Part shown: positions 465 to 64,000 of the stretch, one piece after another
How positions within the stretch are numbered: position 1 is the first letter of the stretch
Layout of the letters: each line of letters starts with the position of its first letter
Source of the DNA: an uncultured Bacteroidota bacterium
GTDB taxonomy: Bacteria; Bacteroidota; Ignavibacteria; Palsa-1295
Reading direction: 5' to 3'
DNA: 64,000 nucleotides
Assembly (NCBI GenBank): GCA_963702215.1
Contig: OY969726.1
Span: forward strand, 1,443,050 to 1,507,049
The notes under the pieces: generated by a model
Databases searched by the model: none
Told to the model about the DNA's origin: nothing
Seen by the model: the letters and a program-made list of their open reading frames with translations, nothing else
Position numbers and translations under genes: made by a program

Positions 465-1242
465 ACTACCGGTAAGCATTCAGCCGTCGAAAAAAGATGG
501 ATTTTCGGATGACCGATCATCCTCGGATGACCGATCATCCTCCGTGCGAGATGTTGCGACCGTGATCGTGGCGGGAGGATTATCGGTTCGCTTTGGGCGG
601 CCAAAGCAGTTCGAAATGCTCGGCCAGCTTCCGATATACCAGTATGTAGCGCGGACGTTCGCGCTGATCGAGTCGATGAACACGGTCGTAATTGTCGGGC
701 CGGAGCGCGATCTGCCGAAAATGCAGAAGGGTATGGAGGCGCTGAACCCGCCCGTGAAATGGAAAGTCGTCGCCGGCGGTGTGACGCGGCAGGATTCCGC
801 AGGCAACGGAATGCGCGCCGTCCATGACGATCCCGAAGTGAAGATCGTGCTGATCCACGATGTCGCGCGGCCTTTGGTGGATGACGTAGTGATTCTTTCG
901 GTCATTGGCGCAATCCGCGAGCACGGCAGCGCGGTTCCCGCAGTCGAGGTGGTCGATACATTAAAGCGCGTGGTGGATGGCGATATCATCGAGACGGTTC
1001 CTCGCGAAAATTTGTGGCGTGCGCAAACGCCGCAGGGCGCGCGGATCGAACTCCTCCGCGCCGCCTTCGCCGCAGCGCGCGATTCGAAATACCAGGCGAC
1101 CGATGAATCCCAACTCCTGGAGCGCATCGGCGAACAGCCGCGCCTGGTTCCGGGAAGCAACCTCAATTTCAAGATCACCTACCCGATCGACTTAGATCGC
1201 GCGCGACTCACGGTGGAACACCGGATTTCTGCGGGGAAATGA
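457..1242 (+). CDS. ispD: 2-C-methyl-D-erythritol 4-phosphate cytidylyltransferase
   Basis: VAGGLSVRFGRPKQF, GGVTRQDS, IHDVARP, RAQTPQ, TDESQL and NFKITYPIDL motifs. Confidence 0.93.
   Translation: MDELPVSIQPSKKDGFSDDRSSSDDRSSSVRDVATVIVAGGLSVRFGRPKQFEMLGQLPIYQYVARTFALIESMNTVVIVGPERDLPKMQKGMEALNPPVKWKVVAGGVTRQDSAGNGMRAVHDDPEVKIVLIHDVARPLVDDVVILSVIGAIREHGSAVPAVEVVDTLKRVVDGDIIETVPRENLWRAQTPQGARIELLRAAFAAARDSKYQATDESQLLERIGEQPRLVPGSNLNFKITYPIDLDRARLTVEHRISAGK
505..540. repeat. Tandem 18-bp repeat containing mini-hairpin GGATGA-CCGA-TCATCC (x2, in frame, encodes SDDRSS x2)
   Basis: TCGGATGACCGATCATCC occurs twice exactly; same family as the hairpins at 31907-32173 and 44015. Confidence 0.9.
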
Positions 1243-29410: not shown

Positions 29411-30169
29411 TCAATTGGGCTTGATAGGCATACCAGTGGGGTTCTCCTTTATTATCATGCGAGCGTAAATCGCTGAATAACCCATGAATAGACCGGCCGG
29501 AGCGTGATGCCCAGGCAGGTCCAAACCGGACGACACAACTGCGAGTATCCGGCGCTCACCATTTTGGTTGCAAGCGAAGATTGGACCGCCGGAGCATCCG
29601 TTCGTAGCGTTTCCATCGAACCAATAGAGGAGCGGAACCTTCCGCCAATCCGCAATGTAGGCATGCTCAAGTATAGGAAAAGTGTGCTCCAACTTTGTCG
29701 CCTCAAGCGCGAGCGGAAATCCAAGTAGCCACGCGTCTCTTCCAAGTAGGTCGAATCCGTCCGTGGTGTCTGCGAGCGGAGTTGTTGAAAAGGGCAGAGC
29801 GGGGTATGAAGTTGCTGACGAGGGGGTGAACACGGCGATGTCCACTTTTGCCTTGCCGCGCCCGATTACCCGAATCGGCCACCTACACCACTTGTCGTTT
29901 TCCAGAATGTCGATAGTGTCGTCGTCTGCCACATTCGAGAGGACATGCCGAGCGGTTATGTAATAGATCCGTCCACCAATTACAGTCGAGAAGGCTGTAG
30001 CTTCGTGGCCTGTTCTGTCGGCAATTAGGTCGACCACATGGAAGTCGCCTTCCGAAGGTAGCGAAGGCGATCCCCTCTGTGGAGTGTAGCATCCTACTGA
30101 CTGACAGGCCGAAGTGACACAGAGGAGGAGCAATTTTCCGATGCGCGAACGATTCTTCGAACTACCCAT
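29411..30169 (-). CDS. Trypsin-like serine protease (exported)
   Basis: ITARHVL (His), VDIAVF (Asp), GCSGGPIF (Ser). Confidence 0.8.
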   Translation of the reverse strand: MGSSKNRSRIGKLLLLCVTSACQSVGCYTPQRGSPSLPSEGDFHVVDLIADRTGHEATAFSTVIGGRIYYITARHVLSNVADDDTIDILENDKWCRWPIRVIGRGKAKVDIAVFTPSSATSYPALPFSTTPLADTTDGFDLLGRDAWLLGFPLALEATKLEHTFPILEHAYIADWRKVPLLYWFDGNATNGCSGGPIFACNQNGERRILAVVSSGLDLPGHHAPAGLFMGYSAIYARMIIKENPTGMPIKPN

Positions 30170-30224
30170 TTTCAACTTATCGCTTCCGGCGTTATTCTCT
30201 TGCGTAAAATTGCGAAAGGATTTT

Positions 30225-30375
30225 CGCTGAGCGAAACGGCGAGGTGCGTGATGTCGATGCCACCGCCGCCCGAGCTTTTGCGCCGCATGGACCGCCGTGC
30301 CGCAACCGCAAAACGGACCCAAGCCCCACATCGCCCGGATTGCTCAATGCCTTGATGATTCGTTCCAAGAGGGCG
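30225..30375 (-). pseudogene. C-terminal remnant of a DNA methyltransferase (SAM-binding motif)
   Basis: Frameshifted ALLERIIKALSNPGDV/PFCGCGTAVHAAQKLGRRW/IDITHLAVSL. Confidence 0.85.
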
Positions 30376-31119
30376 CTATCGTACTCTTGCGGCCACTTTT
30401 TTTGGAATAGCCTCTCTCGGTTCACTGCCTGCGGCATAAATTCTTACGCGAGAAATTATTTTTTCGGAGAAGAACAAATCTTCGTCGCGCTTTAAAATGG
30501 ATTCTATCTTATAGGTCTTTCCATTTTCAATTCTCTCGAGTTGAGTTAATGGATAGGACTCGATTTCATTTCCCCATTGATCCCATCCCTCTCGTTGCAC
30601 CCGAGCGAATAGTTCCACATAAGGTCCGGGACTGCATGCCTCAATAATATCATAGGCCTCATCGGGTTTGCGAGAATGCTCACGTTTCTTTGTCTTGATA
30701 ATATTAACCTGGGTACGCCCGGGATTCAGCGTTCTCATACTGCCTTTGGTTCCAAATAGGATAAGCTCAGTCACATTCCGAAAGTAGAACCCTACACCGC
30801 GCCCGTCGGGACCACCATCCTTCCGGATCTTGTGCCAAACGATGTTCGCTTTGTACTTGAACCCCCATGCTTTCATTACTTCCAGACCTTCCGATAGAAG
30901 GGCATTCGGAACCCAGAGATAGAGGTGCGCCGTATCATCCGCAACCTGGTTTACGGGAAGGGATTTAATCTCTTCCAGATCCATAGTTGAATAACGGTTC
31001 AATCGAACGTGCTCCGGTGCAACCTTACCCGTCCGATTCATAAACCTCCAAGGAGGATCGGCAAGGACGGTCTTATATTTTTTCCTAAGACTTTGCCTTA
31101 AGCTTTGCTTTGCGTTCAT
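30376..31119 (-). CDS. MT-A70 family adenine methyltransferase
   Basis: LADPPW, HLYLWVPN, REHSRKPD, ELFAR. Confidence 0.93.
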   Translation of the reverse strand: MNAKQSLRQSLRKKYKTVLADPPWRFMNRTGKVAPEHVRLNRYSTMDLEEIKSLPVNQVADDTAHLYLWVPNALLSEGLEVMKAWGFKYKANIVWHKIRKDGGPDGRGVGFYFRNVTELILFGTKGSMRTLNPGRTQVNIIKTKKREHSRKPDEAYDIIEACSPGPYVELFARVQREGWDQWGNEIESYPLTQLERIENGKTYKIESILKRDEDLFFSEKIISRVRIYAAGSEPREAIPKKVAARVR

Positions 31120-31762
31120 CTTGTATTCGTTGTAACTTTGTCAAAACTTCTGCCGGTACTTCGTCTTCGATGTACGATGCTTTCGTAATCCCGAACATCA
31201 GCAATGGGCATCCACCAATCGTTCCCGACTTCACTTCTTCAATGAGTTTGCTCATGTGGGTTGTCGATGCTCCATATTTTTTTCCGAGATCGTAACCGAA
31301 ACTTTTGAATAAAGGATCCAGCGAATCGGCGCGCGTAATGATCACTCCAACACTAATCGCACCATGATCGTGTAATTGCCTGAAATTTTTCAGATCCCGG
31401 TCAAAAACTGAATCCTTGCTATTCCATTCCGTCTCGATAGCGATTCGACCCTTAAAATGATCGATCTGATGAGTGTCCGCCTTTCTCATTTCGTCATCAA
31501 TGAGAACCGCTACCTTGAATTTTTTTTCAACCCATCCAAAATCGCTAAATCGTTGATGAATGCTTTTAGCAACGGAACTCATGTTGCCACCTTCCGCGAA
31601 TACCTGGCTTTTCCTAAACCGGAATTCTAAAAGTATCGATTGAATTTCTTCCCACTCGTTGGGGAAATCTTGAGTTAATACAGCGGATGCGTGCCGCCAT
31701 TCCGCTGTATCGAAACTCTTAAGAATTTCGGAAGAAATGTGTTTAGCAGGGATCGAGAGCAT
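31085..31762 (-). CDS. BglII/BstYI-family type II restriction endonuclease
   Basis: THQIDHFKGRIAIETEWNSKD...DRDLKNFR...KYGASTTH; AT-rich; coupled to the MT-A70 gene. Confidence 0.85.
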   Translation of the reverse strand: MLSIPAKHISSEILKSFDTAEWRHASAVLTQDFPNEWEEIQSILLEFRFRKSQVFAEGGNMSSVAKSIHQRFSDFGWVEKKFKVAVLIDDEMRKADTHQIDHFKGRIAIETEWNSKDSVFDRDLKNFRQLHDHGAISVGVIITRADSLDPLFKSFGYDLGKKYGASTTHMSKLIEEVKSGTIGGCPLLMFGITKASYIEDEVPAEVLTKLQRIQDERKAKLKAKS

Positions 31763-31807
31763 TATTTAAAGTGGATATTTATTACTTGAAACCGAGTCTT
31801 CGATAAT

Positions 31808-32263
31808 TCAATTCGCTGTGGGATCGCAATGGAGATAGAGGGAACCGGTCGGCTTTAGTACGCGGTGGAGTTCGAGGAGTCGGTTGGCCATCATGGTGAG
31901 ATAGGCAGCATCGCCGACGATGCTCATATCGTTCTGGCCGAGGAATACGTCGAAGTACAGCATCATCTCGGAGACGTTGGTATTCGGGCTGTGTTCCAGT
32001 TCAGCGAACTCGCGTTCGGAGCATGACCGATCATGCGGCTCGCCCCAATGCCAGGAGTCCTCGAATGCGGTAATCTGGGCGTCGGAAGCATGAGCGATCA
32101 TGCGTCGTGTCCTTCGGCGTTTTGAAGAGCACGGAATAATCGCGCTTCGAATTAAAAGCATGAGCGATCATGCGGGCGGATCGAGATAGACGAGATCGAC
32201 CGATTCCGATGCGATGTGCTCGCGGAGAATATCGAGATTGTCGCCGAAAAAGAGTTTGTTCAA
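31808..32263 (-). pseudogene. N-terminal remnant of a site-specific DNA methyltransferase with four mini-hairpin insertions
   Basis: NKLFFGDNLDILREHIASESVDLVYLDPP^FNS...AQITAFEDSWHW...RLLELHRVLKPTGSLYLHCDPTA; internal stop and truncation. Confidence 0.9.
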
Positions 32264-32322
32264 GGATAGGTGCCTATCAAACATGCTATTAATATACGAT
32301 ATTTTTCGGCGGCGCGGGGCAA

Positions 32323-32345
32323 GTCGGGCTGGAAGCCCGACCTAC
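32323..32345 (-). repeat. GTAG-type REP element
   Basis: Minus strand GTAG-GTCGGGCT-TCC-AGCCCGAC; partial copy GTAGGTCGGGC at ~33651. Confidence 0.8.
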
Positions 32346-32867
32346 GCGGCCGAAATTTCTATGCAGCAATCGCGCATTCGCTTGACTTTGCCATTTGGAT
32401 TGATTATATTAGCACCGTATTCTATAGGCACCCATTTGCTGTTGGCAAGCCGAGTATCTTGCTCATTGAAAACAAACCATCGGTTCATGAATGGATGGAG
32501 GCGAATTGGCGATTTCAGGCGATTTGGATAGTTTTCAATGAATTATGAACTTGCACACACACGATCGGCACCTGTTTGCCTAAAGAATTCGCTTTCCGGA
32601 AAATGGTGCGCCTTGGACAAGCTCCGGGCAAGCTCGATTTATTTATAGAAAATGGTGGCGTTAGTAAAACCAAACGCAAATGTGACAGAAATCCGAGGCA
32701 ATTTAAAGATTCCGGGAGCGTTTTTGCGGCGATGTTGTTTCGTGCGCGGAGAAATCCAGGAGACTCTGCGAAGGCCGTTCATGGTAATGGCCCGGCAGAC
32801 ATCCTCCAAAATCAACCACCCCCCAACCCCCGCCTTGAAAAGGCGGCGGAGAAATAATGTAAGAACC

Positions 32868-33557
32868 ATGGTAAAACTGAGATTAGCACGTCAGGGACGC
32901 AAGAAAGTCCCGATTTATAGAATTGTAGCCACCGACAGCCGTTCGCGGCGGGATGGGCGATTTATCGAATCGCTCGGGCAATACCGGCCTTCGAATGAGC
33001 CGGGGCAGAAAGTCCAGATCAAGGAAGACCGGGCGCTGTATTGGCTCGGCGTTGGCGCCCAGCCGACGGATACGGTCCGCTCCCTGCTTTCGGGCGAGGG
33101 AATTTTACTCAAGTGGCATCTCGAAAAGAAGAAGATCGAGCCGGCCCGTGCCTCCGAAATTTTTACGACGTGGAAGTCGAAGCGCGACGAAAAGCTAACC
33201 GCGAATATGGATGCGAAGGCCGCCGCCCTCCTGTCCCGCGAGGAAGCGAAGCGTAAAGCGGCCGCGAAGAAGGCTGCGGAAGCTGCGACAGCGGAAGCTG
33301 CGACAGCGGAAGCTGCAGCGGTAGCTGCTGCCGAGGCCGCCGCAGCTGTGGTTCCCGAAGCTACGGTTCCCGAAGCTACGGTTCCCGAAGCCGCAGTTCC
33401 CGAAGTTGCGGTTCCCGAAGTTGCGGTTCCCGAAGCTGCGGCAGTGGCAGAAGCTACGGTCGAAGCCGCTGCCGCGGAAGTTCCAGCGGAAGCTGCGCAG
33501 GCAGTCGGGGAACCCTCCGGCACGGAGGCGCGTCCCGCCGAGCGTGTGGAAGGATAA
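32868..33557 (+). CDS. rpsP: 30S ribosomal protein S16 with long Ala/Glu/Pro tail
   Basis: [34 protein letters not shown]. Confidence 0.95.
33280..33440 (+). repeat. 15-bp coding tandem repeats (AATAE x2; [10 protein letters not shown] x6) in the rpsP tail
   Basis: GTTCCCGAAG(C/T)T(A/G)CG units visible. Confidence 0.85.
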
Positions 33558-44014: not shown

Positions 44015-44030
44015 GCATGACCGATCATGC
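44015..44030. repeat. Mini-hairpin GCATGA-CCGA-TCATGC
   Basis: Identical to 32021-32036. Confidence 0.85.
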
Positions 44031-62919: not shown

Positions 62920-64000
62920 TTACGAATACCTTACCCACTTCGCGATCTCGCTCAACTTGAATTTCTTGCCATACATGAGAATGCCTACGCGATAAATTCT
63001 CGCGGCGACCCACAGGCAGCCGAAAAAGGTTCCGATCATGAGCACGACTGCGAGCGCGATTTGCCACCATGGTGGGGTTTCGGTGAAAATGCGGCCAAGC
63101 ATTAATATTGGCGAGAAAAATGGGACGAGTGAAAGGATGACGCTCTTCGTGCTCGATGGATTCCGAATAATTCCCTGCAATAAGATGAATGGAATGACGA
63201 GCAGCATCACGACCGGCATGGCGATTTGCTGCGCACCGCTCGCCGATTCCGACGTCGAACCTACCGCCGCATAGAGCGTGGCATAAATTAAAAATCCCAG
63301 CGCGAAGAACAGAACGAAATACAGGAACATAAAGGGAGAGATCGAAGGCAGAATCCCGGAACCCAGCATGGCGCTTGCAGCCGTGAGGCCGACGGTCACC
63401 AGCAAGGCGAGCATGATCGCCCATACGCCGACCTGAATAAGTGCCGCGCCGGCAACGCCTACCACTTTGCCAACCAAAAGCTGGAATGGCCGCACGCTCG
63501 ATGCTGTAATTTCGATCACGCGGCTCGATTTTTCTTCGATCACGCTGTTCATAATTTGCGTGCCATAAAGCACCAACGTGAGATACAGCAGAAATGCCGT
63601 GACGAACGCCATAATCATTCCCGTATCGCCGCTGTCTTTTTCTTCCGAGCCTGCCTCGAGTTTCACCGTCTCGATATGCACACCGGATTCCACGTTAGTC
63701 ACCAAGCCTGGATCGATACCGCGCGCGCGAAGTTTTGCGTCGCGCACGGCATCGCGATAGGATTCCTTCAGGAAGGATATCGTTGTAAAATCACTTGGGT
63801 TGTGTAGCTTGATAGTTGCCGTCGAGGCGCTATCGCGAATGGCATTGGCCGGAATCACCATGTATCCCGTGAGCGATTTACTTTCGACGAGTTTCGCGAG
63901 CGAATCCATCACATGCTGGCCGGGCGTTGCGTTCGAAAGCGTGACCTTGGTTTCTACCTGTTTCGAGAGGAAGTCCGTCGCAGTAGTTTTCGAGGCCTCG
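62920..64000 (-). CDS. ABC-2/NatB-like transporter permease (5'-truncated)
   Basis: SVIEEKSSRVIE, GKVVG, AARIYRVGILMYGK; frame open to the window edge. Confidence 0.9.
   Translation of the reverse strand, partial: EASKTTATDFLSKQVETKVTLSNATPGQHVMDSLAKLVESKSLTGYMVIPANAIRDSASTATIKLHNPSDFTTISFLKESYRDAVRDAKLRARGIDPGLVTNVESGVHIETVKLEAGSEEKDSGDTGMIMAFVTAFLLYLTLVLYGTQIMNSVIEEKSSRVIEITASSVRPFQLLVGKVVGVAGAALIQVGVWAIMLALLVTVGLTAASAMLGSGILPSISPFMFLYFVLFFALGFLIYATLYAAVGSTSESASGAQQIAMPVVMLLVIPFILLQGIIRNPSSTKSVILSLVPFFSPILMLGRIFTETPPWWQIALAVVLMIGTFFGCLWVAARIYRVGILMYGKKFKLSEIAKWVRYS

Follow-up and report, generated by a model that had tools for sequence, protein, structure and literature searches.

The four short hairpins located in a broken DNA methylase gene of this soil bacterium are probably copies of a very small, non-coding, mobile palindromic family, which is restricted to one genus and comprises three sub-families whose stem arms change together. 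With a core of 16 nt, a usual unit of 18 nt and about 180 copies in the genome, the hairpin is among the smallest mobile DNA elements seen. The initial annotation had proposed a dispersed mobile family smaller than REPs or MITEs, and this agrees with the size of the core, the empty homologous sites and the changing copy numbers presented below; ‘mobile’ is used here on the basis of such comparative patterns rather than of an observed jump.

The window, i.e. the whole stretch of 64,000 nucleotides that was analysed, is part of a single 3.58-Mb contig. The hairpins found in it are the following:

32158..32173, plus strand: mini-hairpin copy 1, GCATGA-GCGA-TCATGC, between the DPP and FNS codons of the minus-strand methylase
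32088..32103, plus strand: mini-hairpin copy 2, GCATGA-GCGA-TCATGC, in the methylase remnant
32021..32036, plus strand: mini-hairpin copy 3, GCATGA-CCGA-TCATGC, in the methylase remnant
31907..31924, plus strand: mini-hairpin copy 4, A-GCATCG-CCGA-CGATGC-T, of the third stem type, with a 7-bp stem
44015..44030, plus strand: intergenic copy, GCATGA-CCGA-TCATGC, between two minus-strand genes
507..540, plus strand: tandem GGATGA-type pair (507-522 and 525-540), with an 18-nt period
63411..63426, minus strand: worn copy GTATGGGCGATCATGC, with two mismatches, found as a pattern match

The seven hairpins of the initial annotation are all present at these positions with the letters it gave, and the worn copy is an eighth. 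When up to two mismatches are allowed, the hairpin pattern has 11 matches in the window, which correspond to seven places (palindromes being counted on both strands); dinucleotide-preserving shuffles of the window give a mean of 0.26 and a maximum of 3 matches, and none of the 100 shuffles reaches 11. The single orientation that had been noticed for the seven copies holds within the window but not genome-wide, where 35 exact copies of the GG and GC types (GGATGA and GCATGA stems, respectively) are forward and 21 are reverse, with no replichore bias. The tandem pair is translated as SDDRSS-SDDRSS in the 5' part of an open frame which goes on as VIVAGGLSVRFG, a motif that we take to be IspD-like. 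A search of positions 31500-32700 against Rfam, with E-values up to 1, gave no match.

Looking at the whole genome, the core of the family can be written as G-S-A-T-S-R / SCGA / Y-S-A-T-S-C. Perfect 6-bp stems with an SCGA loop (TCGS on the other strand) are found 34 times for GGATGA, 18 times for GCATGA and three times for GCATCG, and any other perfect stem with this loop occurs at most once. The GG and GC types amount to 164 copies (56 exact, 59 with one mismatch and 49 with two); all three stem types together, when at least five of the six stem pairs are demanded, amount to 184 copies, versus 3 for the reversed-pattern control. The stems covary while the loop is kept, as had been claimed: among the exact 16-mers, 52 have matched arms (34 GGATGA/TCATCC and 18 GCATGA/TCATGC) and 4 have mixed arms. 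The flanks are not random. GC-type cores are preceded by A and followed by G in 14 of 36 copies, and by C and G in 7 of 36, and the flanks of GG-type cores often lengthen the stem (C..G in 18 and T..A in 11 of 80 copies), which indicates a usual unit of 18 nt. The folding energy of the units, as single-stranded DNA, lies between -4.9 and -7.2 kcal/mol, the lowest value being that of copy 4 (31907-31924; z -4.0). The open frames which hold copies are shorter than those at random places (median 193 vs 423 aa), and frames of fewer than 100 aa account for 20% of the copies versus 4.8% of the random places; part of the pattern therefore seems to reflect survival rather than targeting.

The hairpin family is confined to one genus. 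The GG and GC types are found in all 14 other species of the genus, with 1 to 75 exact copies, and in 2 of the 26 genomes from outside it (six copies and one copy), while the reversed-pattern control had no match in any of the 41 genomes. Eleven of the 14 other species also have the GCATCG type (0 to 58 copies across the 14), and outside the genus it occurs once, in one of the 26 genomes. Copy number ranges from 1 (G010) to about 120 among the species of the genus, which are at most about 80% identical in DNA, and the dominant stem type varies: in G003, 48 of 51 copies are of the GG type, and in G009, 45 of 64 are of the GC type, with 58 more of the GCATCG type. When the stem types are summed, G002, G007 and G011 have 10-16 copies, and G004, G005, G009 and G014 about 92-122. 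In a public genome collection, the multi-copy records among the matches listed are titled Candidatus Kapaibacterium, Ignavibacteriota or Bacteroidetes MAGs, and the single matches listed from unrelated phyla are at chance level by our own estimate. Viral contigs gave 27 and 35 single matches, numbers that we estimate to be close to chance in a collection of that size. Among them, a contig of 32,987 bases (behind L309 and L358) carries two copies, one of the GG type and the other of the GC type, and may belong to a phage or prophage of the genus. A literature search, supplementary files aside, found no such element described in Kapabacteria/Ignavibacteriota.

The gene which holds the four hairpins is found in the following surroundings:

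31808..32284, minus strand: N-terminal remnant of a PF01555 N6/N4 DNA methylase, about 135 codons without the inserts, ending CDPTAN-stop
31085..31762, minus strand: BglII-family restriction endonuclease gene, after the methylase remnant (PF09195, E 2.1e-39)
30376..31119, minus strand: MT-A70-family DNA methylase gene, partner of the endonuclease (PF05063, E 7.1e-30)
30240..30331, minus strand: probable C-terminal SAM-binding motif leftover of the split methylase, GPFCGCGTAVHAAQKLGRRW, with which the ORF 29411..30331 begins

The remnant is translated as MFDRHLSLNKLFFGDNLDILREH...DLVYLDPP and, later, ...LHCDPTAN-stop. The intact full-length homologue L016 has 533 aa and contains PF01555 and Mrr_cat; the probable leftover GPFCGCGTAVHAAQKLGRRW was compared with LDPFCGCGTAVHAAEKLGRQW of L016 by eye. 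We aligned the methylase stretch with nine homologous loci (L010-L018) from nine other species of the genus. Copy 1 (32158-32173) is absent in all nine homologues and has a net gain of 17 nt; it separates DPP from FNS in the motif and brings in an in-frame TGA, as the initial annotation had read it, and with its stop it is the only one of the four copies which is unique to this genome. Copy 2 (32088-32103) consists of 18 nt replacing 1, with one G fewer 8 nt away (net +16 nt). It is absent in eight of the nine homologues; L012 has a copy within 1 nt of this place, with different loop and junction letters and a net gain of 15. Copy 3 (32021-32036), 18 nt replacing 3, gives a net +15 in frame (PHDRSCS in place of QA), and is absent in seven of the eight homologues which cover the site and identical in L010. 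Copy 4 (31907-31924), also with a net +15 in frame (SIVGDA in place of M), is absent in seven of eight homologues and is found in L012 with one extra base (+16). The methylase inserts are thus of about 18 nt (flank base, 16-nt core, flank base) and replace 1-3 nt. Since the homologues are without them, the hairpins are insertions, and the claim that they interrupt the sequence of a dead methylase gene stands.

The source of L010 is G012, the sister species in a four-protein tree, and that of L012 is a more distant species. The sharing of copies (L010 at site 3, L012 at sites 2 and 4) fits no simple tree; it would take repeated insertion at one spot, precise loss, or gene conversion in the methylase family, of which the genomes of some species contain several copies. 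The four copies may have piled up under relaxed selection or may have caused the inactivation of the methylase, a gene that is further truncated and split by another restriction-modification cassette.

Concerning this cassette, the methylase stump ends at the same place (CDPTA/SHYL) in two species, i.e. in the window (30240-32284, minus strand) and in L010 (1502-2753), and the cassettes behind it differ: here they are the BglII-family endonuclease and the MT-A70 methylase, and in G012 an EcoRV-family endonuclease. An apparent old motif-I remnant is present beyond the cassette in this genome. This looks like cassette swapping within the methylase gene. About 200 nt upstream of the remnant (32403-32600) are found at seven other places of the genome with 81-89% identity, one of which adjoins a RAYT gene; a GTAG-type REP lies at about 32310-32350 in the window, and the ribosomal protein S16 gene (32652-33557) has a long C-terminal Ala/Glu/Val/Pro repeat tail (AVPEATVPE...). 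At no fewer than eight loci in six species, a RAYT (Y1) gene is preceded, at a distance of 150-500 nt, by a 5' piece of the methylase, varied in length. In G003, a homologue starts about 1.4-1.8 kb upstream of a RAYT gene, which by the coordinates only fits a full-length gene ending just before it, and at 2230700-2232300 of this genome a RAYT gene and REPs are located between direct repeats of about 100 nt, which are the methylase 3' end. The methylase and the RAYT gene may together form a unit that is present in several copies.

Copies are also found inside working genes. In this genome, ribE (riboflavin synthase) has gained 18 nt (RITDHP) at one site and 36 nt, as a double insert, at another; two other species have in common a 21-nt insert at a third site, and one of these two has a further one of 21 nt at a fourth. 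None of the ribE inserts is present in the five aligned sequences from outside the genus. In a syntenic block from 14 species, and in yidC, cores are found also in the GWxTD protein (20 in 15 sequences), rimO (9 in 15), a glycerate-kinase-like protein (8 in 15), yidC (2 in 6) and the LTD protein (1 in 14), and the PpiC-type protein has 0 in 10 sequences. At the cleanly gapped sites of these five genes the gain is mostly +18, the rest being +15 or +21, and most in-gene copies belong to one or a few species only. Every gain in a working gene is a multiple of three (15, 18, 21 or 36 nt) and is in frame without TGA, i.e. in two of the three frames; the in-frame bias that the initial annotation had proposed to look for in intact genes is present. 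As the gains are multiples of three and the TGA frame is avoided, the in-gene copies appear to be translated and not removed. Splicing or editing out of the inserts was considered and rejected for the same two reasons. In-frame inserts of other sequence, outside the hairpin family, are also species-specific: 22 residues in RibE of G012 (L169), and LPAGRG-type inserts in RimO of G004 (L198) and G014 (L203). These RimO and RibE inserts may be REP read-throughs.

Three usable pairs of paralogous empty sites were found within the genome. In a stray 16S rRNA fragment a copy adds 17 nt compared to the real 16S gene, and a paralogous pair has a gain of 14-16 nt. The stray fragment is of about 135 nt (2657150-2657310) and lies 4.6 kb from the real gene (compared at 2661910-2662028).

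Concerning the junctions, the target lacks 0-3 bases and the flanks have 1-5 extra ones, with net gains of 14-21 nt; divergence blurs the junctions to the base, and small target losses are indistinguishable from later change. No target duplication is seen at the methylase, ribE, rimO, GWxTD, yidC and LTD sites, where a divergence of about 20% limits the precision. The alignment with orthologs, proposed earlier as a way to define boundaries and any target duplication, gave the insertion gap, without boundaries fixed to the base and without a duplication. A common target word was not found by eye at about 15 empty sites. The copies are clustered: 16 gaps between neighbours are of at most 25 nt and 39 of at most 500 nt, versus 0.2 and 4.7, respectively, expected from random placement. 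Close copies are head-to-tail direct tandems, with a period of 18 ten times and of 17 four times, and doublets are found again as units, each at two loci. Of 130 copies, 5 (all GC-type or differing from it by one letter) are located in the loop of a larger REP-like hairpin, versus 1.5% of 5000 random places, and two copies (one pair) are inside AATTCGT-type short repeats.

Three public soil runs of one study revealed no insertion polymorphism, at a contig depth mostly under 3. One contig of these spans 31987-32192, with three copies, without difference, and the run may be the source sample; a contig joint at 32147/32220 has a depth of 2 and may derive from a relative. A metagenome scan with RibE as the query returned only proteins of at most 48% identity and no closer relative.

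These patterns show that new copies arise, in either orientation and on both replichores, at many places which are unrelated to each other, often beside an existing copy (as 17-18 nt tandems) or in the loop of a larger REP hairpin. Selection would then sort the copies, working genes keeping gains of a multiple of three in the two stop-free frames, and the surviving in-gene copies would be read as 5-7 extra residues (such as DERSS, MSDHP, HDRSC, ASPTM and IVGDA). The methylase remnant would be the unsorted outcome, with two in-frame copies which are shared with other species and two frame-breaking ones. The folded single strand is presumably recognised by a trans-acting factor, which would be unlike RAYT, IS200-type transposases, reverse transcriptase and Ku end joining. 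Going further, we tentatively suggest that the 18-nt hairpin is a complete transposable unit, the smallest known, and that it could be moved by a route which involves none of these four, recognises the 6-bp stem and SCGA loop when the DNA is single-stranded, places the unit at exposed sites (single strands or hairpin loops) and is able to excise it cleanly. The variable net length (14-21 nt) is unlike that of any well-studied transposase and counts against reading the hairpin as a mobile element. Reverse transcriptase (RVT_1) was not found in this genome; 6 of the 14 others are positive, and the copy-rich G003, G004, G008 and G009 are not among them. A search for Ku was positive for one of the 14 other genomes of the genus and negative for this genome, and no ORF between neighbouring copies 250-3500 nt apart resembles a transposase.

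The initial annotation had named an HUH/RAYT-type single-strand transposase as the possible mover. In this alternative, which we consider unlikely, the hairpin is a minimal REP-like substrate of such an enzyme (RAYT or the TnpA of IS200/IS605), cut and pasted in single-stranded DNA at the replication fork. It is consistent with the folding of the unit as a single-strand hairpin and with the missing target duplication, but the replichore strand bias that would accompany it is absent: with the origin placed by GC skew near 1.97 Mb and the terminus near 0.23 Mb, the loop strand is leading in 27 and lagging in 34 exact copies (p 0.44), or 42 and 55 with a mismatch (p 0.22). In 35 of the 41 genomes a Y1 gene was found; the 15 of the genus all have one, but so do 21 of the 26 outside genomes, 18 of which are without a GG- or GC-type copy, and the largest number of Y1 matches (11) is that of G010, with its one hairpin. 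The initial annotation had proposed to look for a RAYT or Y1 gene flanked by the same hairpin. The RAYT gene at genome position 2231159-2231503 is flanked by GTAG-type REPs of different sequence, with no mini-hairpin within 3 kb, and a mini-hairpin is near 1 of the 4 Y1 matches in this genome and 1 of the 12 fetched Y1 loci of relatives. Some copies are located in REP loops and two REP composites share 44 nt, so that hairpins may have travelled with a REP; however, the flanks of 36 GC-type and 80 GG-type copies contain no GTAG or CGTC tag (they are A..G in the GC type and C..G or T..A in the GG type), and the doublets are direct tandems, not inverted pairs. The ribE site which is occupied in G008 and G014 and empty in G005 and G009 fits precise loss, on an inner branch that is weakly supported, whereas the net lengths vary and such enzymes cut at fixed places. 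With no strand bias, no tag and no link to Y1 genes, the proposal of this mover is not upheld. A different idea, that the arms act as Type IIS sites (GGATG, GCATC), was rejected by reasoning: the implied cut places differ among the stem types.

It is also unlikely that the copies arose with no dedicated enzyme, a stalled nascent strand pairing with a distant copy, copying the hairpin and returning, and tandems forming by slippage. The variable junctions (0-3 target bases missing, 1-5 extra flanking bases) and the common tandems with 17-18 nt periods would follow from such template switching, as would the empty result of the search for a mobiliser gene. Some empty sites are indeed arm-like (AGGATCAAT in ribE, CATGATG in the methylase and GTCATC at genome position 1399792), but most are unlike the element. 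Template switching leaves unexplained why only this hairpin spreads, given the other, longer REP families in the genome, why the three stem variants have a constant loop and length, and why the family stops at the border of the genus.

We judge it very unlikely that the 16-mer is a selected functional site (bound by a dimeric protein, acting as an RNA stability hairpin or serving as an uptake-type signal, for example) whose mobility is only apparent. Letter-perfect copies across species which are at most about 80% identical in DNA, loop letters kept while stems vary, and the 6-4-6 inverted repeat layout would suit such a site; however, the places are not kept between species, the co-changing arms favour pairing over a protein half-site, copies are found in a dead gene and in a stray rRNA fragment, Rfam has no match, and sister species range from 1 to about 120 copies. 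A sequencing or assembly artefact (adapter or chimera) has a negligible probability, the element being present in the assemblies of 15 species, in frame in conserved genes and in three covarying variants, with a public-run contig that agrees over three copies. The observations which the initial annotation had set against itself, i.e. orthologs already containing the sequences, counts at chance level and an adapter artefact, were checked and the outcome goes the other way, as the orthologs are mostly without copies, the counts are above the control and the element is in the assemblies of all these species.

Returning to a mobile palindromic family as the preferred reading, it would mean that DNA of only about 18 nt can behave as a mobile element, below the limit known so far, and one may ask how little structure is sufficient for a mobilising machine. 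It also offers a concrete source of short indels in conserved proteins, since sister species have different 5-7-residue inserts in the same gene. If the reading as an 18-nt transposable unit is true, there would be steady insertion of 5-7-residue loops into essential proteins across the genus. The methylase remnant would show raw, unselected insertion products beside the selected, in-frame ones of working genes. The three stem types and the spread of copy number (1 to about 120) form a natural experiment for finding the mover, and if this is found, a defined 18-nt insertable tag, of possible practical use, would be available.

Among known systems, MITEs are like the present element in being non-coding and in having inverted-repeat ends, and those of DDE transposons make target duplications. 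In contrast, the present element has arms of 6-7 bp and no duplication is seen, 0-3 target bases being missing instead. MITEs also measure 70-300 bp, with terminal repeats of 15-30 bp (PMC3733652). Rickettsia palindromic elements, as well as the present hairpins, are palindromes that lie in frame in protein genes and are, or here appear to be, translated (as extra loops in the case of Rickettsia). They are of about 100-150 bp, i.e. about ten times longer, and belong to another lineage, the gains here being of 15-21 nt. The Rickettsia elements are those of Ogata et al. 2000, as cited in PMC3184786. HIP1, an 8-mer palindrome of cyanobacteria whose abundance is linked to DNA methylases and selection in the HIP1 passages of PMC4390886 and PMC5861425, is similar in being a short GATC-bearing palindrome which occurs far above chance (CGATC is found in two of the three stem types here). 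Those passages do not present HIP1 as an inserted unit, whereas here homologous empty sites show the insertion of a unit of 15-21 nt.

REPs and REPINs, with their RAYT transposases (Bertels & Rainey 2011, PMC3116915; Di Nocera et al. 2013, PMC3733652), are also dispersed palindromes that fold as single strands, are clustered and are sometimes found in genes and read through. REPs measure about 20-60 bp, are tagged by GTAG or CGTC, flank RAYT genes and have an inverted doublet as their replicating unit (PMC3116915, PMC3733652). The present element differs in size, tag, location relative to RAYT genes and doublet structure, its close pairs being head-to-tail. Compared to IS200/IS605-type (PATE-like) elements, it has no replication-direction bias, a single hairpin rather than distinct left and right ones, and, by eye, no fixed target word.

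The families SDR1-8 of the Nostocaceae, which Elhai and colleagues reportedly described in 2008, are said to be hairpin families of 21-27 nt. These small dispersed repeats and the present element are alike in being very small, dispersed, non-coding and lineage-restricted, and in having no known transposase. Both are also inserted into other short repeats: SDR5 is described in PMC4390886, in its passage on this repeat, as inserted precisely inside HIP1, and the present element is found in REP loops (5 of 130 copies), in AATTCGT-type repeats and beside other copies, which is a likeness of behaviour and not membership. The present element is shorter (16-nt core, 18-nt unit), belongs to another phylum and has variable junctions. 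On this comparison, the small dispersed repeats of the Nostocaceae appear to be the closest known kind, and the present element the smaller of the two.
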